Shown: positions 21,801 to 51,995 of the stretch, piece after piece
Numbering within the stretch: position 1 is the first letter of the stretch
Layout: each line of letters opens with the position of its first letter
DNA from: a virus
Lineage: Duplodnaviria > Caudoviricetes
Length of the DNA: 64,000 nucleotides
Virus record (IMG/VR): IMGVR_UViG_3300032280_000442
Location: 192,001-256,000 of that record
Direction: 5' to 3' (one strand)
Notes under the pieces: model-generated
What the model was told of the DNA's origin: nothing
Seen by the model: the letters and a program-made list of their open reading frames with translations, nothing else
Databases searched by the model: none
Translations under genes and position numbers: made by a program

Positions 21801-23759
21801 TTATTCAATATGAACCCATATTGTGTAAACTGTGTTATCCGGTGTATTTGTTGGTGTTGGTGTTGGTGTCCCTGTTGGTCTTGGTGATGGAAGAATTATT
21901 GGGTCCGATATTATATAAGTATATCCTGATATATTACAATTAATACACACCTCACCACTTGGTGAAGGAGTGATTGTTGGTGTAAGTGTTGGGGTTGAAG
22001 TATTTGTCGGTGTTAAAGTTGGAGTTTCTGTAACTGTTGTTGTAGGGGTAACTGTTGAAGTATTTGTTGGTGTTAAAGTTAGTGTTGATGTCGGAGTAAG
22101 AGTTGGTGTTGATGTAACTGTCGGTGTAGGTGTTACAGTTGGAGTTACTGTACTTGTTATAGTTGGGGTTGGGGTTGGGGTTGGACAAACTATAGAGTAT
22201 TTAACATTACAACTATTACAATTACCTTCATTATTTAAAATAATTGCCGTTGTATATCCTGTCGAAACCTGTGTCTCATTAATTGCACTTGTACATCCCG
22301 TATATCCAATAGTTTGTACATAATAAGACTCACCAACAGTTACTGGTTGAACCAATGAACCAATTTTAAATTTTATATTACTATCACAACAATCTTGGAA
22401 ATAACCAATAATTGGAGGTAATGGTGATGACGTAACAGTTGGTGTTGGTGTTAGTGTTGGTGTTTGTGTTACAGTTTGAGTTGGTGTTGGTGTCGTAGTT
22501 GATGTTTGAGTAACTGTTGGCGTTTGAGTTATAGTTTGAGTCGGGGTTTGAGTTATAGTTTGAGTCGGGGTTTGAGTTGGTGTTGGCGTTGATGTTGGCG
22601 TTGATGTTAATGTATTTGTAGGTGTTACAGTTGGTGTTACGGTAGCCGTTGGTGTTGGTGTTGGTGTTGGACAATCAATTAATCTTACACTAAAGTAAGT
22701 GTCTGTAGATAAACAAGTACATCCTGATGTTGGAGGTAGTGTTGAAACCCATTCGGTATAATCACCAACAGGATATTCCGAATTAATGAATAATTTAGAA
22801 CATTGTTCATTTGTGTCAGTATTTTTAACAACCCAACAAACTTGAATATTATCCCAATATAATATAAAAGGGTTACCATCAATTATTCCGGTCCAATATT
22901 TTTTACCATTAATCAATTCATTTCCTTGAGTAGGATAGTTATAAGTCCCACAACCAGATTCGTTAGTTATTTGTAAACAATAATTTGTTGCGGGTGTTTG
23001 AGTCATTGTTGGAGTTGGTGTTGGAGTTTGTGTTGGTTGAATACATTCACCGTTTACGGTGTACCTACCCGGACCGGATACTATCACAATACCATAATAA
23101 CATTCCGCACAAACGGTAAGAGTATTTCCAGGTATTGTATCTGTTACATCTATAAAAACGGTAACAGGTGTTCGTTCACCACAAGGAATGTAACTAAATT
23201 CAGTATATCCACGTCTACCTAAACCACCATCTAAGGTATAACTTTGACAACCTTTACAATTAGTTTGTGTTGGTGTTGGTGTTGGTAGAGGATTACAAGG
23301 ATAATCTTCCAAACATTTTTCACAACCTTCACCATATGAAATACCCGACCAAGTAAATGTTGGAATACTACCTTTCGGTGCAAAACCTGTAATTGTCATA
23401 CATAATTTACTTGTGGTTAATATAGTTTCCCCAATATTAAAAGTTGAGGGTAATATTATAACACCTGAAAGTCTACTACAACAAGATAATACATTGTAGG
23501 CCAAATTTCTTATTTTTGGCGTTGGCGTTGGTGTAGGTGTAGGTGTTGACGTTGGTGTTGGGCAAGGAATTACTAAGTCACAATATTTATCATATTTTAG
23601 TATGTAAATTTGAAATGTTCCATAATAATAATCATTATCATAATAATAAGGTAATATGACTTGACCTAGATTTATACTTCCCCCTGAACAAGGGAAAAAG
23701 GTAATGGCGGCCAATTGTCCGTTATAGTTTGTTGTCGTTATTTCTAAAAATATTCCCAT
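21801..23759 (-). CDS. Mucin-like Pro/Thr-rich, Cys-module virion appendage protein
   Basis: Multiple (TP)n/TQTPT tracts separating small Cys-rich domains. Confidence 0.75.
22522..22578. repeat. Exact 24-nt tandem repeat in a PT tract
   Basis: GTTTGAGTTATAGTTTGAGTCGGG x2 plus a partial copy. Confidence 0.8.
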
Positions 23760-23771
23760 ATTGTTTTATTA

Positions 23772-26700
23772 TTATGATTGTGTTGTTAAGCAAATAGCCA
23801 ATGTAATACCTGATAATTCACCAACACCCGCAATAGTTATTTGATTATATGGGGTGTTAGAGTTAACCGAAATTAACGCACTACCACCATTAGGTGTGTC
23901 ACTAACATAAGTTAATGATACAGAATTTCCATTTATTGTAACCCCACAAGACGTACCACAAATAGATAGTGTTGGAGTTCCCCCGTTAGTTCCAAAAGTG
24001 TATGTTTCAATACTACTTGGTTGAGAGGTACGACCACCTTGAGACATTAAAAATTTAATATTATTAACAGGTTGATTAAAATTTAAAGTATATGTAAATA
24101 ATCCAGGATTAAACCCTATTATTAATGTATTCGAAGGTGTAATATATGAGGTACAATTTGATTGTGCTGGTACGGTATTCAATGGTATTAATGGACCACT
24201 ATATGTGGTAGTAACTGTCAAACCATTAACTGTTAAACTACCTACACCACTATTAGGTAAAGCATATGTGATACAATAAGGACAAGTTTGTGTTGATGTT
24301 ATAAATGTTACGTTATTACAACTTGGTACCTGTGATGCACCTGACACTGCCCTTCCAATGTTATTAATTAATGTAATTGTATACGGGAATACCGTGTTTA
24401 TTCTATAAATGTCAGGTCCATTAGTAATATAAATACCACCATCTATTGTCGCAAGACCAAAAGGTGTTAGTGTTGGGATACTAATTTGTTTATCAAATTC
24501 TAATACCCAAGTATTACCATTTAAACTATATTGAGAAATGTATGAATTATAAACACCACTTGTATAAGTTGTTAAAATAATTTTACCATTTGTTGTGTAT
24601 AGTATATCCCCGGATATTAACCTTCCTGTAGGTAAAGTAAATAATGTTTCCGATGTGGCTATATTATTTGAATTTAATGTTAATTTAATTATTAAATTAC
24701 CCGTGCTACTAATTAGTTGTGTATCATTAATGGCAGCTAAACCATTTCCTAATGGAACACCTGAATTTATCGCTCTATTATATGTTTTAGTAAATGGACT
24801 CAAAGTTATGTTCCACTCATAAATAAGTAATCCCGCATATAACCATAATTTATTGTTGGTATGAGCAATATCTGAAGATGTAGATGGTTGAGGTGGACTA
24901 GGGTTAAATAATAATGTTGAAACATTAGTTGTTAAATTATAAGAATAAACTTTACCAATTTCTGGCTGATTTGGAGCATCAACATATATAACCGAACATT
25001 GAGGTACCACTATCGCACCTTGTGTTTGAGTAGGTGTTGGAGTTAGGGTAGGTGTTTTGGTTTGAGTTATTGTTGGAGTTTGAGTCGGTGTTAATGTTTT
25101 AGTTGTTGTTGGCGTAGGTGTTAGTGTTGTAGTTGATGTCGGTGTTTTAGTCGTAGTCGGAGTTGGTGTAACTGTTAGTCCAATAGTTCTTGTTGGTGTA
25201 GGTGTTTTGGTTTGAGTTATAGTGGGAGTTTGAGTTGAAGTTTTTGTTATAGTTGGAGTTTGAGTTGGTGTTTTAGTTGGAGTAACCGTCGGTGTTGTTG
25301 TTGGTGTTGAAGTTGGTGTAGGACTTAATGACACAGTTTCAAATTCAAAATCGCAAGACAATGATGTAACCGTCGGTGTTGGTGTAGTTGTAGGTGTTGG
25401 GGTTGGAGTTGGAGTAAGACAAAGAGTATCAGTATTATTAAAACAAGTATTACAATCTTCTTGTTTAATTAATCCAACATATGCGTAAGCTAAATTAGGT
25501 CTATTTTGCGGAACAATTACTGTCGCGCAACCATTAAAACCAGAACTTTGAATATAATACGTACCTTCATAAGCAATACCCAATGAAGGTGCTCCATAAA
25601 TAATAAAAATGTTTGACCTATCACAACAATCAACAAAAGATACCGGAATTGACGGTAACGGAGTCCCTGTCGGTGTTGGTGTATTAGTTCGTGTTGGTGT
25701 TGGAGTTCTAGTGACAGGTATAACATTATACGTTATTGTATTTGAAATAAATGAAGGACAATCATTACTAAACTGTTGAATATAAAAATATATTGTTGGT
25801 GGTAATGTACCCGGTATTGTAATACTTCTTGGTGATGAGCAACCTCCCGCACTACTATTCCAATTAACATTATCCACAGACCAATACACTAAAATTGTTC
25901 CACAAGGTCCTGTAACATTAAAATACAATAAAAATGTATTACCACCACTATTTAATACTGTTTGTAAAATCGGTGCTTGACAATTCTTTGTTTGTGTTGG
26001 TGTTGGTGTTGGAGTTATTAAACAAGGATTTGGTGTTGATGTTGGAGTTGGTGTTGGAGTTACTTGAATAACATTACACGGATATTTTGAAAGACAATAA
26101 CTACAGTTTTTATAAATTGACACATTAAAAGCTATAGTTTCTGTACATTCTAATACATTAAAATCTTGAATCACATAACATACACCATCACTACCTAAAA
26201 TACCTACTCCGACAGCCGCACCAATATTTGATGGGATTCCTGTCATACACTTTTGTTTATCGTCACAACAACTTATAACATTTGCAGACAATTTTCTTGG
26301 TCTTGGTCTTGGCTCTATGGGGTCAATAATAACAGGACCACCAATAACCGGAACATTATCATATTGTGAATCCCCATTATCTGTTAATATGATATCAGAA
26401 AATAATGTATATAAATTTAATCTATTAAAATCATCATCAATAATAAGTTCTGTTATACCCTCTTTACTACCAGTATATATTGAAACTGACGAATTTATTA
26501 TAATTGGGTCACCTGTAGTAACACCTAATACATTTTTAAATGTAACGGTAATGTCGGTATCCACAGGATATCTTGATGTTGCAGTATATAACACACCAAT
26601 AGAACTTGGATAATACTGAGGAACAATAGTAATTGTATTTTCATCAGGATTATCAACAATATTTGGATTCCCACAACAAGGGAATGTTGAGGTATAACAA

Positions 26701-27083
26701 GTGTTATATTCTAAATCGTCAGCAATAAACGATTCTTGTACATATATGTATAACTTTTCTCTAATTGGTAATATAACATTACCGTCAAATGTCTTAACTA
26801 AAAACTGACCCTCATATCTACCTTCAATACTAGTATCTTGTTTGGTAAATTGATAGTAAATATAATATTCTGGCTCAGCATTTGGGTCATCAAATATTTT
26901 TTCAACAAAACCTCCCGGTCTTGAAGTTATCTTAGGAATCCCTGTTTCAGAATTAACCATAGAAAAGAAAATTGTAGAAGTTTCCAATAATTCCATAAAA
27001 TTATTGTAATCACTTCTACCATCTTTTACTACTTGTAATTTTAATAGGGGTAAGGTTGCGTTTTTCTTTATAAAAAATTCCAT
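23772..27083 (-). CDS. Large appendage/fibre protein with BppU-like N-terminus, PT stalks and distal beta domains
   Basis: MEFFIKKNATLPLLK...YYQFTKQDTSIEGRYEGQF...ILPIRE N-terminus; long PT tracts; propeller-like and lectin-like C-terminal segments (inferred). Confidence 0.7.
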   Translation of the reverse strand: MEFFIKKNATLPLLKLQVVKDGRSDYNNFMELLETSTIFFSMVNSETGIPKITSRPGGFVEKIFDDPNAEPEYYIYYQFTKQDTSIEGRYEGQFLVKTFDGNVILPIREKLYIYVQESFIADDLEYNTCYTSTFPCCGNPNIVDNPDENTITIVPQYYPSSIGVLYTATSRYPVDTDITVTFKNVLGVTTGDPIIINSSVSIYTGSKEGITELIIDDDFNRLNLYTLFSDIILTDNGDSQYDNVPVIGGPVIIDPIEPRPRPRKLSANVISCCDDKQKCMTGIPSNIGAAVGVGILGSDGVCYVIQDFNVLECTETIAFNVSIYKNCSYCLSKYPCNVIQVTPTPTPTSTPNPCLITPTPTPTQTKNCQAPILQTVLNSGGNTFLLYFNVTGPCGTILVYWSVDNVNWNSSAGGCSSPRSITIPGTLPPTIYFYIQQFSNDCPSFISNTITYNVIPVTRTPTPTRTNTPTPTGTPLPSIPVSFVDCCDRSNIFIIYGAPSLGIAYEGTYYIQSSGFNGCATVIVPQNRPNLAYAYVGLIKQEDCNTCFNNTDTLCLTPTPTPTPTTTPTPTVTSLSCDFEFETVSLSPTPTSTPTTTPTVTPTKTPTQTPTITKTSTQTPTITQTKTPTPTRTIGLTVTPTPTTTKTPTSTTTLTPTPTTTKTLTPTQTPTITQTKTPTLTPTPTQTQGAIVVPQCSVIYVDAPNQPEIGKVYSYNLTTNVSTLLFNPSPPQPSTSSDIAHTNNKLWLYAGLLIYEWNITLSPFTKTYNRAINSGVPLGNGLAAINDTQLISSTGNLIIKLTLNSNNIATSETLFTLPTGRLISGDILYTTNGKIILTTYTSGVYNSYISQYSLNGNTWVLEFDKQISIPTLTPFGLATIDGGIYITNGPDIYRINTVFPYTITLINNIGRAVSGASQVPSCNNVTFITSTQTCPYCITYALPNSGVGSLTVNGLTVTTTYSGPLIPLNTVPAQSNCTSYITPSNTLIIGFNPGLFTYTLNFNQPVNNIKFLMSQGGRTSQPSSIETYTFGTNGGTPTLSICGTSCGVTINGNSVSLTYVSDTPNGGSALISVNSNTPYNQITIAGVGELSGITLAICLTTQS

Positions 27084-27119
27084 CTAAAGTTTTTATTATA
27101 AATACTTCATAATACGGAA

Positions 27120-28796
27120 TTAGCTTTCTTTTCTTAAAGAACCATCATAATGTTCAAATCGATTATGTTCCGTTGGTGTTAGTAATAACAAACCGGGTTT
27201 AATATTACCTTTAACAGTTTCCTGATAAGCGTAAGACATAAGTGTTTGTTCAAAAGGGTGAGCCCATTTAGTTTCTAAATAACATTTATAATTACCTTGT
27301 TTTGTTAAGACAATTGGCCAATTACATAAATAAATTTCACCTGATACATATGGTAATCCGTTATGAATATTAACCTCATTAAATTTTGTTCTTGGTGAAT
27401 TTGGGTCTAACCCTTGTACAGGTAGTTTTGAGTTATTAGGCCAATGTGATTGTCTAAAATCTTGAGGGACATTATACCAACTCCACTGAACACTATTATC
27501 ACCAAAAAATTCACTAAAATTTAATTTTAAAAAATCAAAATTTTCTTTATCAACAATCTCTAACGATTTTTGATATAAATTATCGACAAATCTTGGGAAT
27601 CCATTTCTACAAACTTCTCCTTTACTAAGATAAAATGCCATATCATCTTCAAACCACCAACAAAAATCTAAACCAGTTTCATCAAAATGTTCGGCAACAA
27701 ATACTCTACCTCCAACAATACCAATGTTATCTTTCTTAATATGTTCAAAACCATATTGTTCACATAACTCAATATATCTTGGCGTTGTAGATAAATCTGT
27801 TGAATTGTCCAATAAAAATTTTCTTGGTTTTTCAATAAAATCTTTATCATAATCTAACATTGATTGAATTAAAACTTCTAATTGTTTTGGTGAGTTAAAT
27901 GTTATAATATAAAGTCCAACTTTTGAATCATCCAAATTATTTATAACAACATCTTTTGACACCTCAGATTTAACTTCAACTGTCATATCTTTTAAATCTT
28001 CAAAAAATTTACCCATTAAACCATTACCCTCAATTTCAGAATAGGTAATAAGATTAGGATATTTGTATGTCATAATTGTAAATAAAGACTCTTCAGTTCC
28101 CATTAAACCATTTGAAAGAGTTTCATTCATTAGTCCGTAATAGATACTGTTAATTTCAGATATAACATTTTTTTTACCACCAAAGAAACCTGCTCGAGCA
28201 ACCATATTAACTTGTTTTCCGGCTAAATCACATAACTCTTGGTATTTGAATCCGTGAATCTCACTATTAGCTTCGTAAGGAAAACAAACAAAATGAAAGT
28301 TTTTAACTAATTGTGGTAATTTGTCTAAAACTTTGTCGTGTGTGAAGTATCCGGGATGGATTGTGTTTGTTAAACCTGCGTCAATCCAAAACATATATTC
28401 CGAATTAAACTTATCTAAAATTTTAGCATCGTGTAACAAATAAACTTTAGACATAACTAAAGGATTATACATCTCTAATTTAGCCTGTGTTGATTCTGTT
28501 AACCAACCAACTTGATTATACCAATCAGGATTAGTCCTAATTTTTTGTATTTTATCGTATAATTCATTATTCTTAAACCAAGATAAATCTCTACGAATAA
28601 ATTGTGTATTATCGTCGCGTCTATTATTAAAAACAAATTTTTCTAATTCTTCATCACCAAATATTATCATATTCACATCAACTTGTAATAGTTGTTGGAA
28701 TTTATCTAAATAATGTTGGAATGAACGAGACCACCCTTCTTGAAGGTCTCCTCTACCAATATCCCATAATCCGGTTACTAATGTTATATTATTCAT
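27120..28796 (-). CDS. Two-domain glycosyltransferase (HtrL/WlaTC-like + GT-A fold)
   Basis: ITLVTGLWDIGR, FWIDAGL, GFFGG, MGTEES; C-terminal domain with WWFEDDM. Confidence 0.7.
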   Translation of the reverse strand: MNNITLVTGLWDIGRGDLQEGWSRSFQHYLDKFQQLLQVDVNMIIFGDEELEKFVFNNRRDDNTQFIRRDLSWFKNNELYDKIQKIRTNPDWYNQVGWLTESTQAKLEMYNPLVMSKVYLLHDAKILDKFNSEYMFWIDAGLTNTIHPGYFTHDKVLDKLPQLVKNFHFVCFPYEANSEIHGFKYQELCDLAGKQVNMVARAGFFGGKKNVISEINSIYYGLMNETLSNGLMGTEESLFTIMTYKYPNLITYSEIEGNGLMGKFFEDLKDMTVEVKSEVSKDVVINNLDDSKVGLYIITFNSPKQLEVLIQSMLDYDKDFIEKPRKFLLDNSTDLSTTPRYIELCEQYGFEHIKKDNIGIVGGRVFVAEHFDETGLDFCWWFEDDMAFYLSKGEVCRNGFPRFVDNLYQKSLEIVDKENFDFLKLNFSEFFGDNSVQWSWYNVPQDFRQSHWPNNSKLPVQGLDPNSPRTKFNEVNIHNGLPYVSGEIYLCNWPIVLTKQGNYKCYLETKWAHPFEQTLMSYAYQETVKGNIKPGLLLLTPTEHNRFEHYDGSLRKES

Positions 28797-30459
28797 ATAT
28801 GTTGTTAAGTTCTGTTAATATTTTATAAAAACTTCTATTTTTTTTAACGTGTTCCGCCATATCAGTTCCGGCAATTCTTTCGTCTTCGTGCCACCAAGTT
28901 TCAAAATAATAATTGTAAAATAATTCAGGATGATTTCTAAACATTAATGTTATAATATCTTCCTCGTGGTATAATCGTTTATCGTGTTCAGAAACCGTAT
29001 AAACATAATTTCTAAATAATTCAATAATTGGGTCCCATAATTCTTTTCTACCACCAAACATTCCACCAATAATGTGAATACTTCGATTATAATCTATAAA
29101 ATGTATTGGATTTACCGTTCCTGACCAAAAATTTCGTTCATTCTCTTTTCCGATAAGAGTAAATTTGTCACCTGTAGTTTTAATTAAATTATTTAAAAAT
29201 AGATTATTAAATAATGGACTTTCATAATAACCTTGATTATGAGGTCCGGTTAGTGAAAGATGTTTATTTGGAATTAAACCACAGTGAGATAATCCAGCAT
29301 CAATCCAAAAATAGTAATCGTAAGATTTATCTTCATTTAAAAACCAAATAAATTTCATATATTGAATTTCAATACATCTATCTCCTCTCTTAATGCCTTC
29401 AATATCTTTATATTGATTAATTATTTCAGAAAATTCATTATCATATAGATTAAATTTAACTATTTGTAATTTTTCTCGACTAATATTATTTTCTTCGTAA
29501 AAAAATTGTTCTAAACCATCAAATTCCTCATCTGAAGTATAACAAATGAAATCGGCATTAGTCATTTTTAATATTGATAATAAACTCCATCGATAATGTC
29601 CGTGACGATTTGGTCTTCCACCTAATTCAGTTCCATATAAATTAGAATAAATTGCAGTAATAAATTTAACACTATACTCCGATTCAATATCTAATGATGG
29701 TAAATCAATTTCTAATGGTTGAAATATTGGTTTTAAAATTTTAGTTTCTTTTTTAATTAAATTTTCGGGGTATTTTTTTTCATTTTCACAATAACCCATA
29801 TCATAATATAAACCACTAATTTTGTTTTCAGTATATAAATTCCAATTATATGTAATCATATAATGATTATTATCGTTTGTTTGATTAATATCAGAAAAAC
29901 CACCTCTTTGAGTAATTACAGGTAATGACGTTGAATAACATTTAAAGTTTGAAAACACATCTTCATCAAGATATTGGTCTATTGCTTTTTGACTTTCTAA
30001 CTTGAATTTTAAGATTTCTTCACCAAATTTACGATTTATTATATAACACGCTAAATTATAAATCCCTCTATGATGAGGTTCTTTTTCAGGTAAATTAGAC
30101 AAATCCAATAAATTTTCAGAATAGTTGTTTACAGGTCTATTTAAACTAGGACCTAAATGAAAAAAATCCCATTCAATATTATTTAGTTCATTTAAAGATT
30201 TTTCTAATTGAGTTTTAGCATAAGGCATAAAGAAACAATCATCTTCGAGTATCATTATATATTCATCATTAGAATTTATAAAATCCTCAACAATTTTTAA
30301 ATGTGATAACGCACAACCATCATAACCTCCTTTATCAATACCTTCAAAAATTTCATAATCCCAACCAATATATTCCATTTCACGATTAAATTCTTCTAAT
30401 CTGTCTGTCCTACGTTTAAGATTTATTACAACTTTTCTAATATTATTAATGTCCACCAT
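28789..30459 (-). CDS. Two-domain glycosyltransferase (GT25 + HtrL/WlaTC-like)
   Basis: INLKRRTDR, GCALSH, MILEDD (GT25); C-terminal FWIDAGL...IIGGMFGG. Confidence 0.75.
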   Translation of the reverse strand: MVDINNIRKVVINLKRRTDRLEEFNREMEYIGWDYEIFEGIDKGGYDGCALSHLKIVEDFINSNDEYIMILEDDCFFMPYAKTQLEKSLNELNNIEWDFFHLGPSLNRPVNNYSENLLDLSNLPEKEPHHRGIYNLACYIINRKFGEEILKFKLESQKAIDQYLDEDVFSNFKCYSTSLPVITQRGGFSDINQTNDNNHYMITYNWNLYTENKISGLYYDMGYCENEKKYPENLIKKETKILKPIFQPLEIDLPSLDIESEYSVKFITAIYSNLYGTELGGRPNRHGHYRWSLLSILKMTNADFICYTSDEEFDGLEQFFYEENNISREKLQIVKFNLYDNEFSEIINQYKDIEGIKRGDRCIEIQYMKFIWFLNEDKSYDYYFWIDAGLSHCGLIPNKHLSLTGPHNQGYYESPLFNNLFLNNLIKTTGDKFTLIGKENERNFWSGTVNPIHFIDYNRSIHIIGGMFGGRKELWDPIIELFRNYVYTVSEHDKRLYHEEDIITLMFRNHPELFYNYYFETWWHEDERIAGTDMAEHVKKNRSFYKILTELNNIYE

Positions 30460-31706
30460 TATAAATTACCTGTTATTCTATCACACCAACCTTTTGACTT
30501 ACTAAATGGCCAAACAACCCAGTATTTTGGTTTATGAACTGTTTGGAAATCTCTCCAAACTTTACAATACCCATCAGGGTCATTCATCATCATATTGATT
30601 TCATTGATGTCAGCATCTTTTCTAAAGATTGTTTCATCATTTTCATCGTGAAATGCTACAACCCAAAAATCATAATCTTTTTCCGGAACTTGATGAAATC
30701 CAATATCAATACAGTGTTTAAAGATACTGGCATAACTTGCCAACCATTCTTCCTCAGTTTCAAATATTTGAGGGTTAGGTGCATAATGTTTATCTAAAGT
30801 ATATTGTTGAACAGCTCTATTTGAAAATTTAAGACCTGAATAAATTTCATAATCTCTTAAAGTTCTTTCAGTTCCAAAACCATAATAACTAAAATCCAAA
30901 GTAACTTCTTCTCCGTCCATACCAAATAATTGACGATTTTTCTTATGAGATAATTCATTTTTCTTACCCCACTCTTTATCATCATCCCATTGTTTAGTTC
31001 TACCCTTACGAGTATATTCGTGCCAAATAACGGTTTTGTGTGGATGGAATAAATCATATCCGTGAGTGAATGCCCTAACGGCGATAGATATTTCTTCTCC
31101 GTGAAAATAAAACTCAGGGTCGTGTTGAACCTCAACACTAAATTGTCCTAATGTAAATGCCATATGGGCAGAATAAAATCGTGAAGTAACCGGTTCGGTA
31201 AGTGTTTCCCATCCCGGAATTGTTTCAGGTAAGAAGAATACAGCACCTTCAGGAATGAATCTATCAAAAGCCATTCTCCAAGGCTCCTTAACTCTACCTG
31301 CCGGGTCATTGTCCGGGTCAAATGATGATACATATCCCGTCAATAAAGGTTTCTTAAATCCTTTCTTTTGAAGTTGTTTAATCATTTTAATTAAGGTATC
31401 GTCCCAATCCTTTTCAAATCTCATATGAGAATCAATTTGTAAAGTATATTCTTCACCTTTATATAATTGTTGAACTTGATTTCTTGCCCAACAAACACCT
31501 TTTGACTCTGTATATAAGACATCAATAACTCTAAAACGTTTGTCACCTTTGAATTCGTCTAAGTTATCAAACCCATCTTCAGGATGGTATTGACGACAAA
31601 TTCCGATTATTAAATTTTTTGGCTTTTTAGCATTTTCCAACATAGATTTAATTGTTGGGATAAGTTGGGGGTCACGATAGGACGCAATTTGGACAAATAT
31701 TTTCAT
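30459..31706 (-). CDS. GT60-like peptide alpha-GlcNAc transferase (Gnt1/Gnt2-like)
   Basis: IFVQIASYRDP, GVCWAR, LQIDSHMRF, FHGEEISIAVRAFTHGYDLFHP, WHEY. Confidence 0.8.
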   Translation of the reverse strand: MKIFVQIASYRDPQLIPTIKSMLENAKKPKNLIIGICRQYHPEDGFDNLDEFKGDKRFRVIDVLYTESKGVCWARNQVQQLYKGEEYTLQIDSHMRFEKDWDDTLIKMIKQLQKKGFKKPLLTGYVSSFDPDNDPAGRVKEPWRMAFDRFIPEGAVFFLPETIPGWETLTEPVTSRFYSAHMAFTLGQFSVEVQHDPEFYFHGEEISIAVRAFTHGYDLFHPHKTVIWHEYTRKGRTKQWDDDKEWGKKNELSHKKNRQLFGMDGEEVTLDFSYYGFGTERTLRDYEIYSGLKFSNRAVQQYTLDKHYAPNPQIFETEEEWLASYASIFKHCIDIGFHQVPEKDYDFWVVAFHDENDETIFRKDADINEINMMMNDPDGYCKVWRDFQTVHKPKYWVVWPFSKSKGWCDRITGNL

Positions 31707-34705: not shown

Positions 34706-34707
34706 TA

Positions 34708-34926
34708 TTACTTAATAATTAACTCATCTGTAGATTGTTTATCATAATTAATACCAAATTTTGATAGTTCAGTTACAAATTCTTCACGAATAGTTGTTGT
34801 AAACATATTAGGTTTTGGTGTTATCATATATTGACCGGATGTAACCTCACCATAATGAGGTAATGTTTCATAATCATCGTATGATATAAAATAAGTTGTT
34901 ACTGAGGGGTATTTAATTTCGTTCAT
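34708..34926 (-). CDS. Small hypothetical protein (paralog of 34957-35151)
   Basis: PHYGEVTSGQYMITPKP. Confidence 0.6.
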   Translation of the reverse strand: MNEIKYPSVTTYFISYDDYETLPHYGEVTSGQYMITPKPNMFTTTIREEFVTELSKFGINYDKQSTDELIIK

Positions 34927-34956
34927 ATTTTATAAGTATTTAGAAACTAATTTAAA

Positions 34957-35151
34957 TTAAACCTGTGATTGGTTTATTATTGGGGAATTTGATATATATT
35001 CTTGACCTAAATCAAGAACTCTATCAATTAATTCTTGTTCTGTATCGAAATACTCTAAAAATGGTTGTCCTGTTGTAACCACCTGTCCTTCTCTAAGACT
35101 TCCATAATGAAACACGGTAGTTTCGTTATGTGCTAAATAAAATTTGTTCAT
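34957..35151 (-). CDS. Small hypothetical protein (paralog of 34708-34926)
   Basis: FHYGSLREGQVVTTGQP. Confidence 0.6.
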   Translation of the reverse strand: MNKFYLAHNETTVFHYGSLREGQVVTTGQPFLEYFDTEQELIDRVLDLGQEYISNSPIINQSQV

Positions 35152-35174
35152 ATTATTATTATTTTAATTATTTA

Positions 35175-37430
35175 TTATATTCCTCCACCATCAACTATGG
35201 TCCAACCCCAACCTGTTTGAAGATACGCTTGACCTTCATCATAAATATATGGGTTAGAAAATGAACTACCAATTAAATCAAAAGTAAAACTATCTATAAC
35301 ATCTATAAACCAAACCCCATTAGCCTCAACTGTTCCATTAGATGGTGATACAGAAAGATATATTTTCATACCGCTATATAATATATCTCCAGGGTCATAA
35401 AGTAAATAAACTCTACATAAACCAGAACCATTATTAGTAATATCTGAAATAGGATAAATATTTGCTGGTCTACTAAGTAAAGCTCTACCTTCAAATGATA
35501 CTGATGTGGTATAATTTGCCGTTCCAAATGATATTGACTGATATGTTTGAATAAAAGTCAAATTAGACCACCCATTATAAATTGCATCAAGATTGGCAGC
35601 AGAAAACGTTGATGGTGTTTTAGTTGACATAAAATTTGAAAAGCTTGAAACAAACCCAATATTCCAATTACCAATGTCTTGATTAAACGCGACAGCACCT
35701 TGAAACATTTGACTCATATCAATAACGCCACTAACATTCCAACCACTCAACGGTTGGTTAAAACTTATTGAGTTAGAAAACATAAAATCCATATAATCAA
35801 CACTACTGACATCCCAATTACCAATAGGTTGATTAAAATTTGAAGCACTACTAAACATACCACCCATACTTGTAACGCCAGTAACATTCCAACCACTTAA
35901 AGGTTGATTAAAACTTGTTGCACCAGCAAACATAGAATTCATATTTGTAACACTACTAACATTCCAATTATTAATATTTTGATTAAAATTTGGAGTACTA
36001 TTAAGCATAGCATACATACTTGTAACTCTACTAACATTCCAACCACTTAATGGTTGATTAAAATTTGTTGCTTGTTGAAACATTTGAGACATACTAGTAA
36101 CTCCACTAACATTCCAATTATTAATATCTCTATTAAAAGATGTTGCTTGTTGAAACATAGAACCCATATTTGTAACATTACTAACATTCCAACCACTTAA
36201 AGGTTGATTAAAAGATGTTGCTTGTAGAAACATAGAATTCGCATTTGTAACACCACTAACATTCCAATTATTAATATCTTTATTAAAAGATGTTGCAGTA
36301 GTAAACATATTAGCCATATTTACAACTCTATTAACATTCCAATTACCAATATCTTGATTAAAAGATGTTGCTTGTTGAAACATAAAGGCCATATCTATAA
36401 CTCTACTAACATTCCAACCACTTAAAGGTTGATTAAAATTTGAAGCACTATTAAACATAAAAGCCGTATCTGTAACACCACTAACATTCCAATCATTAAT
36501 ATTTTGATTAAAATTTGAAGCAATATTAAACATACCCCTCATAGTTGTAACTCTACTAACGTTCCAACCACTTAAAGGTTGATTAAAATTTGAAGCACTA
36601 CTAAACATTGAGGACATATTAGTAACACCACTAACATTCCAATCATTAATATTTTGATTAAAATTTGAAGCACTATTAAACATAGTAGCCATATTTGTAA
36701 CATTACTAACATTCCAACCACTTAAAGGTTGGTTAAAGTTTGTTGCTCCTTGAAACAAAGCAATCATATTGGTAACATTACTAACATTCCAAGAATTTAT
36801 AGGTTGATTAAAATTTGGTGTTACACCAAACATTTGCTGCAAATCATTTACATTAGACAAATCCCAATTATTAATACCGGTAACATAATTAACGAGTGTG
36901 TTTGCAAAAAAACCAAACAAACTTAAAAGAGTGTTAGGTACTCTTGGTGTTAAATCAATTAAATCTTTTGTGTTATAAGTTAAATTAGTACACCCATTAA
37001 ATGGCCCTGACCCAACGGTAAGCTGTTTAAAAGTGCCCCATTGTATAATTTGAAGTATTTTTAATCTATCACCACCAGTATTAAATTGAAACCCATCAAT
37101 AATCCCTTTTATTTTTATAGTGTAAATACCGGCAGTTGCGTACGTATGTGTAATAGCCGCTGCGTTATAGGCTCTAATAATGTCTATACTTCCATCACCC
37201 CAATCAACGGTAAAATTATAATTACCGTTAATACTTAAAGGTAATCTAACTTGTTTGTTTGTTGATACACCAGCATTTCTTGTATTCCAAACGGTTATAA
37301 AGGACTTTCCATCTTCAGGTGTTTCATTGGAAATGTTCCCGCTATCCAAACCACTAAAGTAATTTGACAGAGTTCCAACACTATTTCCGTTAAATGTTAA
37401 TCCGTTATTTAAACCGTTGAATAATCCCAT
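35175..37430 (-). CDS. DUF285/BspA-like repeat surface/receptor-binding protein with PKD-like domain
   Basis: VDWGDG...HTYATAGIYTIKI; about 16 tandem 25-aa FNQPLSGWNVSxVTxMxxMF repeats; C-terminal WTIVDGGGI. Confidence 0.85.
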   Translation of the reverse strand: MGLFNGLNNGLTFNGNSVGTLSNYFSGLDSGNISNETPEDGKSFITVWNTRNAGVSTNKQVRLPLSINGNYNFTVDWGDGSIDIIRAYNAAAITHTYATAGIYTIKIKGIIDGFQFNTGGDRLKILQIIQWGTFKQLTVGSGPFNGCTNLTYNTKDLIDLTPRVPNTLLSLFGFFANTLVNYVTGINNWDLSNVNDLQQMFGVTPNFNQPINSWNVSNVTNMIALFQGATNFNQPLSGWNVSNVTNMATMFNSASNFNQNINDWNVSGVTNMSSMFSSASNFNQPLSGWNVSRVTTMRGMFNIASNFNQNINDWNVSGVTDTAFMFNSASNFNQPLSGWNVSRVIDMAFMFQQATSFNQDIGNWNVNRVVNMANMFTTATSFNKDINNWNVSGVTNANSMFLQATSFNQPLSGWNVSNVTNMGSMFQQATSFNRDINNWNVSGVTSMSQMFQQATNFNQPLSGWNVSRVTSMYAMLNSTPNFNQNINNWNVSSVTNMNSMFAGATSFNQPLSGWNVTGVTSMGGMFSSASNFNQPIGNWDVSSVDYMDFMFSNSISFNQPLSGWNVSGVIDMSQMFQGAVAFNQDIGNWNIGFVSSFSNFMSTKTPSTFSAANLDAIYNGWSNLTFIQTYQSISFGTANYTTSVSFEGRALLSRPANIYPISDITNNGSGLCRVYLLYDPGDILYSGMKIYLSVSPSNGTVEANGVWFIDVIDSFTFDLIGSSFSNPYIYDEGQAYLQTGWGWTIVDGGGI
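35650..36870. repeat. 75-nt tandem repeat array (25-aa DUF285 units) with 150-nt higher-order alternation
   Basis: Recurring CTAACATTCCAACCACTTAAAGGTTGATTAAAA alternating with CTAACATTCCAAT(T/C)ATTAATAT units; boundaries approximate. Confidence 0.8.
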
Positions 37431-37446
37431 TATTTAATATAAAATG

Positions 37447-37899: not shown

Positions 37900-37928
37900 T
37901 TTTTTGTGTTTTTAAATTTTATTTGTTA

Positions 37929-39575
37929 TTAATAATTATATAAATTTCTAAATGATGTCATAAGAAGATAATCAATATCTCCTCCAACTATTGTTGTTGC
38001 ACTAAAGGTATTTGCCGTTAGACCATTTGTAAAGGTTGTTGCACCTGAAACTGTTCCTCCACTCAAAGGTAATGATGGTAAATTTTGATATGTTGTTGCA
38101 GATATTGTAGTAGCCGTTATATTATTAGCTGTTAGATTATTATTACCTAAATTAACATTTGTAGTTGCTCCACTATATGGAACTAATCCAGCTATACTTA
38201 CACTAGCTACTGGTAGTTGTAATCTTGAATTGGTGGAATCATCGTAAAATAATGTAATATCACGATTTACACCACTTAATATATTTGCATAAATTTTAAC
38301 CACTAATCTATCAGTAGTCAATATGGTTACATTAGTAGGTAATAGTATGCTAACTGTTTGTTGAATTACTACGTTGGTTGCTATTACAGATGTCATATCA
38401 CTAGTACCAAGAAGAGTTTCTGTTCCAGCTAAGTTTCGTTTGTAAATTTCAGCAAAACATTCGTAAGTATTACTTCCTGTATTTTTTTGAGTTTCAAAAT
38501 GTACCGTTACAATTCCACTTGGAATTACGCTTGTATTGGGGTAATTAAGGTTTGTTGCAAAATTAGCTAATAACGTTGGTGAAGTTGAAACTGTTGTTAC
38601 AATTGAAGCAATAGCGTTTGGAACAAATAATGGTAATATAACCATTTGTTCATACCCCCCTATATCTGAATTATTTGAACTGAATATATATGAGTCACTA
38701 ACATTTGTTGGTAAACCCAAATATGTCGTTGCTGATATTGTTGTTGCTGATATTGTTGTTGATGTTAAACCTCCCGTAAAATTTGTTGCCCCCGATACTG
38801 TACCACCGGTAAACGATGTTCCTGTACTTGTACTAAAACCAGAGACACCAAATGTTCCTCCGCTATTATTTGTAAAAGTTGCGGTTCCATTATTATAAGT
38901 TCCTCCGGTTACAAATATGTCTTTAGGTAAATTCTGATATGTTGTTGCAGAAATTGTATTTGCCGTTAATCCACCTGTAAAGATTGTTCCACCTGAAACG
39001 GTTCCTCCGGTAAATGTTTCACCACCACCGGTCTGTAATACTCTCCAAGAAGCGTTTGTGTCGTTATAACCACCGATACCTGATATTGTTGAAGATGTCC
39101 AAGCACTTATAAACGCAATTCCGGCAGCTGAGTTATTCTTAACCGTTGTTCCATAATCTGAGATAACCACAGTTTGACCACCAGGTCCCGTGGCACCTGT
39201 TGCGTTATTCCATAAAGTATCATAATTATCAATTCTAAATTGATATATTTTATTGGTTTCATAAACATATACTAACATTCCCAATTTTCTTCTACCCGAA
39301 GAAATATTATCAGAATTTAATGTTAATACATCAGGGGAGAAAACCGAACCGGAACCTTTTACTAATTGAATTGGAACGGAGTTACCTGAAAATTCAATAA
39401 TTCCAGTTGTTGCCGGAGGTATCGTATAGGTTAATCCGGATAAATCATAAACCTCCATATATCCACCTGTTTGAAGGATACTGAAGTTTGTACCAAAGGT
39501 TGCGTTATTTGGGACAGATGGGTTACCAAATGATGTTATAGGAGAAACCGGTATTTTGTTTAAAAAATCACTCAT
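37929..39575 (-). CDS. Fibre-like protein with GGTVSG/TISATTY repeats
   Basis: RRKLGMLVYV motif; repeated FTGGTVSGxTxFTGGLTxxTISATTY. Confidence 0.7.
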   Translation of the reverse strand: MSDFLNKIPVSPITSFGNPSVPNNATFGTNFSILQTGGYMEVYDLSGLTYTIPPATTGIIEFSGNSVPIQLVKGSGSVFSPDVLTLNSDNISSGRRKLGMLVYVYETNKIYQFRIDNYDTLWNNATGATGPGGQTVVISDYGTTVKNNSAAGIAFISAWTSSTISGIGGYNDTNASWRVLQTGGGETFTGGTVSGGTIFTGGLTANTISATTYQNLPKDIFVTGGTYNNGTATFTNNSGGTFGVSGFSTSTGTSFTGGTVSGATNFTGGLTSTTISATTISATTYLGLPTNVSDSYIFSSNNSDIGGYEQMVILPLFVPNAIASIVTTVSTSPTLLANFATNLNYPNTSVIPSGIVTVHFETQKNTGSNTYECFAEIYKRNLAGTETLLGTSDMTSVIATNVVIQQTVSILLPTNVTILTTDRLVVKIYANILSGVNRDITLFYDDSTNSRLQLPVASVSIAGLVPYSGATTNVNLGNNNLTANNITATTISATTYQNLPSLPLSGGTVSGATTFTNGLTANTFSATTIVGGDIDYLLMTSFRNLYNY

Positions 39576-39579
39576 ATTA

Positions 39580-40620
39580 TTATGTTATTGTGTTACCCCT
39601 CATATAAATATTTTGAGTATCGGTTATCTTGAATATTGTATTAGGGTAAGTTGTATAAACTCTATATGTTATTGGAGGAATTGTTGCTCCGGTATATGTA
39701 AATGTATATGAATTTATTGTACTTTCGGTTCCAACACCCGTTAATAAATTAGGACTATTACTTGTGTTAATATCAATAATTGTCTGTTTCTTATTATTAG
39801 TCAACGAAACAGGTATTATCCAAGTATACCATCCACTACCATTAACATATCCTGCCGGTATTTTTGTTGTTAAGAAATTATAAGCAACAATTGAGTTATT
39901 ATATTGGTCCTCACCACCTGATGTTTGAGGAACAGTTTGTTGTATCAATGATGGGAATAAACCATTTGTCCAACCACTAAAATCAACATACTTATTCATA
40001 TCAATATTAAACTCAGTTTGATTTTGCGTCGGTTGAGAATAATTTGTAAACCCAAAGAAGTTTCTACCACTATTATACATCCATTGACCTATATTTGTTG
40101 AACCTGAAACTGGTTCGATAAATAAATATGCAAAATACGCCGGTGTAGGTGTAGGTGTTGGAGTTTTAGTCATTGTTGGTGTTTGACTTGGTGTGGTTGT
40201 ATTTGTCGGTGTAGGTGTTGGTGCATTAGGTGTTGATGTGTTTGTCGGTGTCTGTGTGTGAGTTGGGGTAATACTTGGTGTTGGCGTTGGTGTAGGGGAA
40301 ACATTACAAGGATTATATGTTGGTGTATTTGTTGGTGTACTTGTCGGTGTCGTTGTGTTTGTTGGAGTTTGAGTCATCGTTGGGGTTGGGGTTGGTGTAG
40401 GAACGGTTACATTCATAATTATTGGACAATCCGCACCCTCAATCAATATGGTATAAACACCATACACATCACGAGGAGGTGTTAATAATGACGGATTAAA
40501 CACATATGGTAATGATTGGTTTCCTAAATTAATAACCGCATTAACATTTACAGGTTTAAACAAAATATTTGCCACCTCACCACTATAATTTACGCTTTGT
40601 ATTGTTATTGTATTTGACAT
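39580..40620 (-). CDS. PT-stalk appendage protein
   Basis: N-terminal domain similar to that of 21801-23759; central (TP)n tract. Confidence 0.75.
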
Positions 40621-40637
40621 ATTTTATTTTTTTATTA

Positions 40638-43600
40638 TTAAGGTATACAATCCATTTCTGTTGTTACGGATTCAACCACACCTGAAGCATTTACATAAAC
40701 CCCATCATAAATAATAGCACCACTATTACATTCCCCATTTCTAAATAACGCACCAAAACCAGGACCATTACACGATACATATGATGTTAATTGTGGATTA
40801 TCATAGAACTGAGTTCCAACTACTATTGAAGGAGATAGTGAGTATACCGTTATTTCATCACAGTTGTATTGATAAGGTAGACAACATCCAAACAAATTAT
40901 ATGTGTAAACAGTTGGTCTTGTCGGTGTTGGTGTTCTTGTCGGTGTTGGAGTTTGTGTTCTCGTAAGTGTTGGTGTATTTGTTGGTGTGGTTGTTGGAGT
41001 TTGTGTTGGTGTTAATGTTGGTGTTCTCGTAAGTGTTGGTGTTGGGGTGTTAGTTGGTGTTGGACAAGCAAACGCGTTAACTGTAGGTGCCGGTAAAACA
41101 CCTAGTTCCGCTAATCCCCACGAGGTTTCCTGATAAGGATATTGTGGTGGAGGTGTAGTGTTACCATAATAATAAGTAGCCTCATCATCAGAGTTATATA
41201 TACTCCACACTGTTATTCCTAAAACTTCTTGAAGAATAATACTAAAAGCATTGTATACGTAGTATGGCCTATTGAATCCATTTAGTGTGTAATTACCAGC
41301 ATATGTGTACGTACCATTCGCCCCAACACTTCCAGCTCCACTAACACATACACTACCTGCAGGTGTTGTAGTTGGCGTAATTGTTGGTGTGCGTGTGAGT
41401 GTTGAAGTGTTTGTTGGTGTTAAAGTATTTGTTGGAGTTAAAGTATTTGTTGGTGTTACACTTGGTGTTGTTGTATTAGTTGGAGTTATAGTGTTTGTAG
41501 GTGTTACACTTGGTGTTGTTGTATTAGTTGGAGTTATAGTGTTTGTAGGTGTTATACTTGGTGTGACTGTATTTGTCGGCGTCACTGATGGTGTTACACT
41601 TGGTGTTGTTGTATTAGTTGGAGTTATAGTGTTTGTAGGTGTTATACTTGGTGTGACTGTATTTGTCGGCGTCACTGATGGTGTTACACTTGGTGTAGGA
41701 GTCACCGTTGGTGTAGGACCATTAATTGTAAATGTAAAATCATCCACAGGACAAAATTCTTCACCACAATCAGGACAATCCGGATTAAACATATTAAAAG
41801 TATCCTTTAATAAATTAAAATTATGTTTAACCTCAGGTGCGGATAATGGTGAGACATACATTCTGAATTGAGATATAGCCCCATCAAATGTTCCTCCAAA
41901 ATTTTGTTCCAATAATATATTTGTGGTTAACCCACTATACATAGTACCAACTAAATCATTTGTTGGTAAAGATTCGGGGTCTTGAATATATGTTGTTCCG
42001 GTTGTTGATGAGAATGTTAAATTTTCTCTTAAACCCTGTGTTCCACCACCCCACGAAATATTAAACGGAACACCAACTTGTTTTTCTTTATCTGTATTTA
42101 AACCTCTTGGAATAATCTCCTCAAAATTCTCTATAGTAAAAAATCTTCTACCATTAATATATATTTTTAGTCTACCTTTTCTATAATGTTTATCAATTAA
42201 CCATTTTTCGTTTAAATCAACTAATTCAACTTCACCCGGTGCTGGATATCCTACTTGAGTGTATGGAGGTGCGATTAATGACATTGAATTGTTAGCTAAT
42301 GATTCTAAAAGTTTTCTTTCAGTTATATCTCCTAATCCTCCACGATACCACAAATCACAAGTATCTAACCAAGTGTATCTTTCCCATACCGCATCAAGTT
42401 GGAACCAATGTTCTTCTTCCAAATACGCAGGATTTACATTCTCACAATAATCATATATTCCTGTTGGAGAACAATACTCAGTTATAGTATATCCTGTTTG
42501 ATAAGTTATCCCACTAGTCTCACAAGACCCTGTTGTAACACAATCACCAGTAAATCTTAATACTTTAACACCTATTGATGGATTATGTGGGTCACCACAT
42601 AATTTAAATGAAATCGCGTTGGATATTGAATCAAATAATGGGTCCGTTTCACAAGTTGATTGGACTGATGATTCACAAGTATGGTTTCTACATTCCCATC
42701 CACAGATATCATTTTCAAATGTTGGGCAACCACAAGATGAACAAACATAAGACGATGAATTACAACCACAAGTATTACAACCATAATTATGATGAGGGTC
42801 GTGGTCACCATTAATACTTCTTGGTGGATAAACATAGATACAACGACTATCTGTTACCCCTGTATTACAACAAGCACAAGTTTCTAACCCAACTAATCCG
42901 GAAGTAACTCGAGTATAAGCGGATATCCCACCCATAAATCCATCCGCGTGATGATAAAATTTATTCTCAGCACGAGTTCCCATATAAAAGAATATATTTT
43001 TATTTTGGGGATAAACAACATTTAATGTTGTTTCACCTGAAGATGGTGAGTATTCGTTATTTTCCGGAAATCTTGGTTTTAATAACATTTCAACAGACCA
43101 TCCTTTATTCATCCTTTCAGGGAATATCTCGTAATCATAACCAAATAACTTGTAAAATCCTTGATAAAATCCACCATATAATTGGTGGATGTTAGTTCCA
43201 CTAATTAAATCATACTGACTAATAACCTCATATAATATGGTTTTATTAAATCCTGTAAATCTAATATTACTACTAGTATATCCTGTAACTTGGAACATTT
43301 TAAATCGTCTATCAAACGATAATCTATCAAACTTAGTAAAATCATTAATCCCATTGGTAAATGTTATTGTTTGTCCGGTCATACCTGTAACCAATCCATT
43401 ATCAATTCCGGTTAAACCAATATCACAAGATGTGTTAGCGGTTAAACAACTTAAATCTAAATTATCAGGATTATAATAGTTTTTAGAAACAAAAACATTA
43501 TTAAAATTGTAATGTTTATAAATTAAAGAATATTGTTGGACAGAACTACTATCGTCAATATCAAAATAAAATGGTAATCTATTACCGTATGTTTGAGCAA

Positions 43601-43730
43601 TAAGATATGGTGAGAAAACAACTTCTTCATTAAAGTTTCTCTCATCGCTAACTAATGACATATCATTAGATTCTAACCCTAATTTTATACCCCAATTTGG
43701 TTTTGGAAATTGATTTATATTTTGACTCAC
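40638..43730 (-). CDS. Large structural protein with LamG/concanavalin-like domain and PT stalks
   Basis: GWSVEMLLK, GRLKIYING, FDGAISQFRMYVSPLSAPEVKHNF; Cys-rich insert; long PT tracts. ORF track start is a GTG. Confidence 0.7.
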   Translation of the reverse strand: MSQNINQFPKPNWGIKLGLESNDMSLVSDERNFNEEVVFSPYLIAQTYGNRLPFYFDIDDSSSVQQYSLIYKHYNFNNVFVSKNYYNPDNLDLSCLTANTSCDIGLTGIDNGLVTGMTGQTITFTNGINDFTKFDRLSFDRRFKMFQVTGYTSSNIRFTGFNKTILYEVISQYDLISGTNIHQLYGGFYQGFYKLFGYDYEIFPERMNKGWSVEMLLKPRFPENNEYSPSSGETTLNVVYPQNKNIFFYMGTRAENKFYHHADGFMGGISAYTRVTSGLVGLETCACCNTGVTDSRCIYVYPPRSINGDHDPHHNYGCNTCGCNSSSYVCSSCGCPTFENDICGWECRNHTCESSVQSTCETDPLFDSISNAISFKLCGDPHNPSIGVKVLRFTGDCVTTGSCETSGITYQTGYTITEYCSPTGIYDYCENVNPAYLEEEHWFQLDAVWERYTWLDTCDLWYRGGLGDITERKLLESLANNSMSLIAPPYTQVGYPAPGEVELVDLNEKWLIDKHYRKGRLKIYINGRRFFTIENFEEIIPRGLNTDKEKQVGVPFNISWGGGTQGLRENLTFSSTTGTTYIQDPESLPTNDLVGTMYSGLTTNILLEQNFGGTFDGAISQFRMYVSPLSAPEVKHNFNLLKDTFNMFNPDCPDCGEEFCPVDDFTFTINGPTPTVTPTPSVTPSVTPTNTVTPSITPTNTITPTNTTTPSVTPSVTPTNTVTPSITPTNTITPTNTTTPSVTPTNTITPTNTTTPSVTPTNTLTPTNTLTPTNTSTLTRTPTITPTTTPAGSVCVSGAGSVGANGTYTYAGNYTLNGFNRPYYVYNAFSIILQEVLGITVWSIYNSDDEATYYYGNTTPPPQYPYQETSWGLAELGVLPAPTVNAFACPTPTNTPTPTLTRTPTLTPTQTPTTTPTNTPTLTRTQTPTPTRTPTPTRPTVYTYNLFGCCLPYQYNCDEITVYSLSPSIVVGTQFYDNPQLTSYVSCNGPGFGALFRNGECNSGAIIYDGVYVNASGVVESVTTEMDCIP
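41453..41696. repeat. Exact 90-nt tandem duplication (30 aa) preceded by a 48-nt partial copy in a PT tract
   Basis: 41501-41590 is identical to 41591-41680; 41453-41500 equals the first 48 nt of the unit. Confidence 0.9.
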
Positions 43731-51994: not shown

Positions 51995-51995
51995 T

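Follow-up and report, generated by a model that had tools for sequence, protein, structure and literature searches.

The stretch of DNA analysed here, a window of 64,000 nucleotides (nt), comprises bases 192001–256000 of a complete viral genome (IMG/VR record IMGVR_UViG_3300032280_000442; 308,574 bp, direct terminal repeats, 31.5% G+C). Its minus strand carries the gene of a glycosyltransferase of family GT60, two further transferase genes and five genes whose products contain long Thr/Pro tracts. We judge it moderately probable that this block is a phage-encoded cytoplasmic system for mucin-type protein O-glycosylation, acting on the phage's own Thr/Pro tracts. The family membership of the enzyme, its fold, its soluble topology and a phylogenetically broad co-occurrence of GT60 with (Thr-Pro)n [(TP)n] were observed. 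A preceding sequence-only reading had taken the DNA to be that of a phage, and this label is correct because the complete genome contains a Gp23-family major capsid gene (genome 267–269 kb, E 4.7e-66), a tail sheath gene (window 3968–7555) and a baseplate hub gene (window 1385–2140); the virus is a T4-type myovirus. Coordinates below are those of the window unless the genome is named.

The proposed initiating enzyme is encoded at 30459–31706 (minus strand) and consists of 415 amino acids (aa). The motifs IASYRD, QIDSHMRF and GEE, from which its family had been read, are present in the translation, and the search against the hidden Markov model of GT60 (PF11397), which had been proposed as a check, gave 235.7 bits against a cut-off of 21 (E 1.4e-69); a six-frame search of the genome also found the match. 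An alignment of 41 single-domain members with 34–51% identity showed that D92 and H94 (the DxH within QIDSHMRF), E204-E205 (the GEE), R75 and H229 are invariant. PF11397 as a whole is a large family of 4,698 clusters (50% identity, E<=0.001), many of them multi-domain. The phage protein is composed of a GT-A catalytic domain (residues ~1–320) and a separate beta-rich C-terminal domain (~325–415), the latter with no Pfam match at E<=1. Its nearest solved folds were those of mucin-type polypeptide N-acetylgalactosaminyl (GalNAc)-transferases of family GT27, with 12–16% identity only; a phmmer search against PDB sequences gave no match, and only the fold search was informative. Thus, on the strength of the model match, the invariant DxH and a GT-A fold closest to GT27 catalytic domains, the enzyme is a true member of GT60.

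GT60 includes protist polypeptide alpha-N-acetylglucosaminyl (GlcNAc)-transferases, namely the mucin-type initiators of Dictyostelium and Trypanosoma cruzi and the Skp1 hydroxyproline GlcNAc-transferase Gnt1. The phage enzyme has no hydrophobic segment (peak 19-residue Kyte–Doolittle mean 0.76) and therefore resembles the soluble cytoplasmic Gnt1 and not the Golgi type II members. Gnt1 has been described as soluble and cytoplasmic, and the ricin-like lectin domain at the C-terminus of GT27 as absent from GT60 (PMC8724618); the C-terminal domain of the phage protein gave no Pfam match to such a lectin or to any other family. By analogy with the family, the donor would be UDP-GlcNAc and the first sugar alpha-GlcNAc. 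Two tandem GT60 genes were seen in some phages (IMG/VR records G001 and G015; also loci L213 and L247), and two GT60-bearing contigs carry a giant-virus metagenome-assembled genome label (GVMAG) and are possibly misclassified jumbo phages.

The putative acceptors are the products of five minus-strand open reading frames (ORFs) rich in Pro and Thr, which lie, as had been reported from the sequence, at 21801–23759, 23772–27083, 31760–34705, 39580–40620 and 40638–43730. Together they contain 24 tracts with 695 residues (42.7% Thr, 26.6% Pro and 5.9% Ser, or 338 Thr plus Ser), so that all five have the dense Thr/Ser/Pro tandem repeats of mucin-type acceptor proteins. The DNA pattern coding for (TP)3 was found 32 times genome-wide compared with once for the reversed control, and ~10 tract proteins are encoded in the genome, the remainder at 137–153 kb and 277 kb. 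The DNA that encodes the tracts is made up of imperfect tandem repeats, and a perfect 90-nt duplication in tandem (2.2 copies, 100% match) is present at 41500–41696, inside a Thr/Pro tract of the gene at 40638–43730. The tracts seem to grow by slippage or unequal recombination. All details of the sequence-only observation that could be checked proved right.

The tract proteins are mosaics of shuffled small modules, and no signal peptide was found in any of them. In protein 1 (652 aa, 21801–23759; phrog_15511, function unassigned) eight tracts alternate with small Cys modules. Protein 2 (1103 aa, 23772–27083) begins with a tandem beta-sandwich region, hereafter the anchor, and continues with eight tracts and a C-terminal globular region. 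Protein 3 (981 aa, 31760–34705), whose gene immediately precedes GT60 as transcribed, combines four tracts and Cys modules with a C-terminal DUF285 region of BspA-like repeats (PF03382, E 2.2e-100). The smallest, protein 4 (346 aa, 39580–40620), consists of a 69-residue N-domain, a 93-residue tract with 39 Thr and a 184-residue C-domain. Protein 5 (1030 aa, 40638–43730) has tracts of 98, 15 and 54 residues and a probable LamG/concanavalin-like N-region, for which Laminin_G_3 gave a sub-threshold match (E 0.0053) and a language-model atlas a LamG score of 0.94–0.95, which we treated as a lead. Four of the proteins (the two encoded within 21801–27083 and those at 31760–34705 and 40638–43730) contain 29–33 cysteines each, in shuffled small modules (C-x2-C, CC) that may form beads between the spacers, stabilised by disulfide bonds or metal.

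The association of the enzyme with such tracts was analysed in other viruses. Clustering of 161 viral GT60 proteins at 70% identity gave 36 independent lineages, and in 20 of these a tract protein was encoded within 10 kb of GT60, compared with 1/55 lineages of a control set (p = 1.8e-9) made up of 80 loci anchored on phage thymidylate synthase (thyA) from similar large freshwater phages; only 1/1,864 genes in the control loci had a tract. Position -1 to GT60 was enriched for tract proteins (7/36 lineages). Among close relatives (77–96% identity) the gene directly upstream of GT60 ranged from 170 to 3315 aa, yet a tract was present in 58/70 loci.

Because the loci around thyA do not represent a structural neighbourhood, whole genomes were compared as well. 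At least five (TP)3 matches were found in 21 of the 22 GT60-positive records and in seven of the 17 GT60-negative ones; all seven of the latter were incomplete and hence unscorable, and three were fragments of a single species with GT60 on other contigs. When complete large phages were compared (complete records plus added cultured phages), (TP)3 DNA was present in 11/12 genomes with GT60 (6–44 matches) and in 0/9 without it (Fisher p = 3.4e-5). The cultured GT60-positive phages XacN1, Xoo-sp13 and RAS14 had 29, 26 and 19 matches respectively, whereas RaK2, GAP32, phiKZ, T4 and G, all in the GT60-negative set, had none. The link between GT60 and the tracts is stronger at the level of the genome than at the level of the neighbouring gene.

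A similar association was observed in bacteria, where we analysed 80 GT60 loci from many phyla. By a strict tract definition, tract proteins were found no more than six genes from GT60 in ~20/65 loci, and beyond six genes in 0/196 genes. The strict definition excludes the PSEEP and TEPPP tails of VgrG proteins, and a broader Pro plus Ser/Thr definition, applied also to the controls, gave a tract protein in 41/66 loci, with 12.5% of the inner compared with 4.9% of the outer genes (p = 7.5e-4). Of 17 genomes with any (TP)4-coding DNA, nine, from at least five phyla, had it mostly or wholly inside the ~21-kb GT60 locus (locus/genome counts 43/43, 54/58, 37/37, 14/14, 13/13, 10/17, 4/5, 3/3 and 1/1), although this locus makes up 0.14–0.5% of the genome (binomial p = 5e-10 across all 66 loci). 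The proposed initiating enzyme and the putative acceptors were therefore inherited together in these nine bacterial genomes as in the complete phage genomes.

In Ralstonia, Achromobacter, Paraburkholderia and Paraherbaspirillum the tract protein was the type VI secretion spike VgrG (Phage_GPD plus gp5 C-terminal domain). Eight Burkholderiales loci (L129, L153, L158, L108, L132, L144, L147 and L161) had VgrG two to three genes from GT60, with a tail of (TP)n, (TEPPP)n, (PSEEP)n or (EEPAASD)n, and in three genomes the VgrG tail was essentially the sole (TP)4-coding DNA of the chromosome set. VgrG is a phage-tail-like protein assembled in the cytoplasm, a setting that in cell-biological terms matches that of a phage fibre. 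Other bacterial partners were a Por_Secre_tail protein of the type IX secretion system (T9SS) and a subtilase.

The two genes that follow GT60 were each found to encode a two-domain transferase, proposed here to extend the first sugar. The first (556 aa, 28789–30459, minus strand) is encoded by a gene whose start shares 1 nt with the stop of GT60; its N-terminal half resembles GT25 (PF01755, residues 48–127, E 2.2e-15), and its C-terminal half gave no Pfam match at E<=1. The second (558 aa, 27120–28796, minus strand) has an HtrL/YibB-like N-terminal half (PF09612, HtrL_YibB, E 2.1e-20; TIGR02192, E 2.4e-21, under its cut-off) and a GT-A-like C-terminal half. Both assignments agree with the families named before any search was run, and both fall in the N-terminal halves. 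As read from the translations, the motif 'FWIDAGL' occurs in the C-terminal half of the first protein and in the HtrL-like domain of the second, and a ~556–560-aa homologue of the second recurs downstream of GT60 in many relatives.

The C-terminal half of the second transferase (27123–27959, minus strand) also gave a sub-threshold match to the TET-associated glycosyltransferases (TAGT, PF20691, E 0.033). This is the single hint toward DNA modification and probably reflects generic GT-A similarity, but it raises the question of whether the transferases glycosylate hypermodified bases of the phage DNA against restriction, like the T4 glucosyltransferases or the TAGT enzymes. In favour of this, a few kb separate the block from the DNA polymerase gene, the two being direct neighbours in some relatives, and in XacN1 a carbamoyltransferase gene comes next after GT60, near replication genes. 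Against this, the sole thymidylate-synthase-family gene scores as a true thyA (TIGR03284, 180.7 bits compared with a cut-off of 108.35) with the dUMP-type motif GLPFNIASY, and neither a hydroxymethylase nor a TET/JBP oxygenase was found in the complete genome, the absence of the latter being weakly supported as the Tet_JBP control was silent. Furthermore, the GT60 fold is nearest to polypeptide transferases, and the links to the tracts and to bacterial VgrG would be left unexplained. We consider DNA glycosylation very improbable. The phage thyA is split by a 240-aa homing-endonuclease-like ORF (genome 48.7–50.7 kb; locus L165, 2929–3258, 2168–2890 and 1243–2181, minus strand), and both exons keep the canonical ThyA motifs.

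The proposal that the neighbouring genes form a glycan-tailoring set was borne out across viruses in the shape of a variable cassette. Downstream of GT60, 118 distinct gene architectures were counted in 162 viral loci, consistent with a fixed initiator plus a quickly changing tailoring cassette. A tally of 148 such downstream genes comprised 12 FkbM methyltransferases, 11 HtrL, eight GT2, six GT25 and five of another methyltransferase family; GT34, GT10, GT11, carbamoyl- and acetyltransferases, DegT and nucleotidyltransferases were further members. Judged by gene content, the picture fits a conserved GT60 initiator heading a variable tailoring cassette, comparable with O-antigen or serine-rich-adhesin loci. 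A second glycosylation island is present at 49984–62176 (plus strand), with double GT2, GT25, two GT11, oxidoreductase, GDP-mannose-dehydratase-like, DegT-family and epimerase genes, whose products are all predicted to be soluble, and possibly supplies sugars and further extension steps.

The same genes could be read differently, namely as enzymes that remodel the host surface (lipopolysaccharide core, O-antigen or capsule) against superinfection or at receptors, with the tracts being plain linkers in the same variable region. GT25 and HtrL_YibB are best known from lipopolysaccharide core clusters, GDP-sugar enzymes and GT11 as in the second island are typical of O-antigen loci, and Pro/Thr spacers are able to work without sugar. 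However, no membrane-spanning segment was found in any transferase of either island, and searches of the complete genome for the lipid-carrier priming enzymes Bac_transf (PF02397) and Glycos_transf_4 (PF00953) gave no match, with controls positive in 9 and 12/14 genomes; the membrane-bound priming or embedded transferases of lipid-carrier polysaccharide synthesis were thus not found. The nearest solved folds of GT60 are also those of polypeptide transferases and not of lipid or glycan transferases, and a genome-level, in places genome-unique, association of GT60 with (TP)n would be unexpected if the two were unrelated. Remodelling of the host surface therefore seems to us distinctly unlikely.

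Whether O-glycosylated tracts would be carried by the virion depends on the nature of the tract proteins. The anchor of protein 2 (the N-terminal 140–330 residues) is conserved in 110 proteins, in which it is fused, usually after Pro/Thr tracts, to DUF285, LamG, delta-60, RCC1, Fib_succ, P-domain, LRR and other distal domains. A conserved N-terminal module with spacers and swappable distal domains is, by its sequence layout, typical of phage fibres and receptor-binding proteins. In addition, the N-terminal 62 residues of protein 1 are 60% identical with those of a DUF285-protein ORF at genome 275272–276948, ~7 kb from the capsid gene. For XacN1 virions, at least two Schiff-positive bands have been reported and ascribed by the authors to phage glycosyltransferases, of which that phage encodes only two (PMC5852040); one of the two is a GT60 homologue (48% identity). 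We infer that the tract proteins are virion appendages, and this is the weakest link of the argument.

Several findings weigh against glycosylation of virion tracts by GT60. The AlphaFold2 model of the anchor (three beta-sandwich domains, predicted local distance difference test score 77) matched only generic immunoglobulin (Ig)-like structures and uncharacterised tailed-phage proteins, one of the latter, at a low template modelling (TM) score, labelled BppU; none of these matches is diagnostic. When three domains from the tract proteins were searched by tblastn in 50,697 phage records, no useful match resulted, and no annotated relatives in cultured phages were found. In the relative P0377 the anchor module is fused to an HtrL_YibB-like domain, so that either a transferase-like domain sits on an adhesin scaffold or a simple role as virion anchor does not apply to the module. 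The XacN1 report gives no protein identity for the Schiff-positive bands. The lipopolysaccharide background of GT25 and HtrL and the sugar-free function of Pro/Thr linkers, both mentioned above, count here too. Finally, the co-occurrence test suggested by the sequence-only reading was strongly positive in phages and bacteria, whereas adjacency held only in part: within 10 kb a tract protein was missing in 16/36 viral lineages and in about one-third of the bacterial loci (25/66 even by the broad definition), and (TP)3 DNA was absent from G035, a complete phage genome with GT60 that has a TSTPEPTPEP-type tract near this gene instead.

Some of these points would fit an alternative in which GT60 does glycosylate Thr/Pro tracts, but those of non-virion targets, such as intracellular or lysis-released phage proteins or Pro/Thr-rich surface proteins of the host. 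Decoration of fibres would then not be its purpose. The lack of annotated relatives of the tract proteins in cultured phages, the generic fold of the anchor, the fusion in P0377 and the non-phage bacterial partners (the T9SS protein and the subtilase) speak for it. It accords less well with the fibre-like arrangement of module, spacer and swappable adhesin-like domain, with the N-terminal module common to a protein encoded beside the capsid gene, with the fact that the best-defined bacterial partner, VgrG, is a phage-tail-like spike, and with the glycoproteins reported in XacN1 virions (PMC5852040). We regard such targets as rather unlikely, though deserving of serious consideration.

Returning to glycosylation of the phage's own appendages, we infer in the following scheme the sugar, its acceptor, the place of the tract proteins in the virion and the advantage gained. 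During infection, and late in its course, the soluble GT60 would move the first sugar from a host nucleotide sugar onto tract threonines, and some serines, in the cytoplasm, the acceptors being the (T-P-x)n spacers of newly made phage modular proteins. The two adjacent two-domain transferases would then extend this sugar, probably helped by the island at 49984–62176, and short, lineage-specific glycans would result on the primer laid by GT60. The glycosylated spacers might serve as stiff, extended, protease-resistant stalks or brushes that hold adhesin-like domains (DUF285, LamG-like) off the particle. A broader proposition, which in our judgement is evenly poised between right and wrong, is that GT60 represents a widespread prokaryotic and phage family of cytoplasmic O-glycosyltransferases dedicated to (Thr-Pro)n, that builds mucin-like glycan brushes on exposed surfaces of contractile injection machines, be they fibres or decorations of phages or the C-terminal tails of VgrG spikes, with the fast-evolving cassette setting the identity of the glycan.

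Compared with the protist GT60 enzymes, the phage protein has the strong model match, the invariant DxH and acceptor-like Thr/Pro repeats encoded alongside, and is predicted to be soluble like Gnt1; it differs in being encoded by a bacteriophage, in lacking the membrane anchor of the Golgi enzymes and in an extra ~90-residue beta-rich C-domain. Hydroxyproline as the acceptor, in the style of Skp1 and Gnt1, is less likely, as no match to a 2-oxoglutarate-Fe(II) prolyl hydroxylase, the partner in the Skp1 pathway, was found in the complete phage genome with a positive control. The GT27 polypeptide GalNAc-transferases of animals and Toxoplasma share the low identity given above, and unlike them the phage enzyme has no detected ricin-type lectin domain and is not part of a secretory pathway.

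Two bacterial systems offer further comparisons. On Gram-positive serine-rich-repeat adhesins, GtfA/GtfB initiate O-GlcNAc in the cytoplasm and strain-variable transferases extend it. A cytoplasmic initiator and a variable extension set acting on long hydroxy-amino-acid repeats are thus shared with the proposed phage system, whereas the GT4 (GT-B) pair as the initiator, the Ser-rich acceptors and the accessory Sec export do not apply to the phage. Bacterial cellulases, e.g. those of Cellulomonas, have extended Pro/Thr linkers between globular modules, with O-glycosylation of the linkers conferring protection from proteolysis, but these proteins are secreted and modified outside the cytoplasm by membrane-bound mannosyltransferases.

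Phage particles are usually treated as bare protein, and to our knowledge virion glycosylation has been demonstrated directly only for mycobacteriophages, where we know of no involvement of GT60. As later papers summarise the work of Freeman et al. (2023), mycobacteriophage Che8 and its relatives use an enzyme of their own to attach O-linked sugar to one of their structural proteins within the host cell, the acceptor being the capsid protein and not long (TP)n spacers of modular fibre-like proteins as here (PMC13445384, PMC12801897). XacN1 is like the present phage in its GT60 homologue and its (TP)3 DNA, and ORFs with (TP)n in it include ORF325, ORF350, ORF232–237, ORF372 and ORF384; its authors named no glycosyltransferase family, acceptor proteins or tracts (PMC5852040), and its GT60 gene has the carbamoyltransferase and replication genes noted above as neighbours. 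Our literature searches found no account that places GT60 in phages or PF11397 in prokaryotes, and none of VgrG tails that are glycosylated. Protein O-glycosylation by phages is itself known, and what is new relative to the Che8 and XacN1 work is the GT60 enzyme together with the Thr-Pro tracts.

If GT60 coats Thr-Pro spacers, many abundant freshwater jumbo phages would bear a variable glycan layer on the parts that contact the host, with effects on host range, protease resistance, adsorption to slime and antibody recognition, and some type VI secretion spikes would be glycan-coated too. Relatives of mucin-type initiating enzymes would then be placed firmly in prokaryotes and their viruses, and mucin-type initiation would be a common trait of phage-tail-like machines and no eukaryotic speciality. 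The idea lends itself to direct tests, given that the enzyme is a small protein predicted to be soluble and that XacN1, Xoo-sp13, CM1 and RAS14 exist in culture.

The block forms part of a compact minus-strand gene run that extends from 43730 down to 15362. Its order is the LamG-like tract protein, the small tract protein, a 548-aa Thr/Gly-rich protein, a 150-aa protein, a DUF285 protein, the tract plus DUF285 protein (31760–34705), the three transferases, the two further tract proteins (23772–27083 and 21801–23759), a trypsin-like protease, a 737-aa ORF and a family-B DNA polymerase. The 548-aa protein (37929–39575, minus strand) is, from its translation, a Thr/Gly-rich repeat protein and possibly fibre-like; the language-model atlas gave weak leads to phage tail-type proteins, and tblastn a single weak match to an uncultured phage. 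The DUF285 repeat protein at 35175–37430 (751 aa, minus strand; PF03382, E 2.6e-202) is without a Pro/Thr tract and is a paralogue of the C-terminal part of protein 3 (41% identity over 640 residues). Between the genes of these two paralogues, a 469-bp gap with no ORF of at least 80 aa (34706–35174) breaks the otherwise tight run.

Directly downstream of tract protein 1 lies the gene of the trypsin-like serine protease (20523–21782, minus strand; GDSG motif, phrog_20754 'protease'). If the tracts are glycosylated, resistance to a protease such as this one could be one conceivable benefit. A scan for sigma-70 promoters and terminators gave counts no higher than chance, and transcription units were not definable from it. 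The T4 late-promoter motif TATAAATA was found 22 times in the window against 19.5 expected, i.e. at chance overall. Single copies of the motif precede the first tract gene by 34 nt (43764–43771, minus strand) and the tail sheath gene by 23 nt (7578–7585, minus strand).

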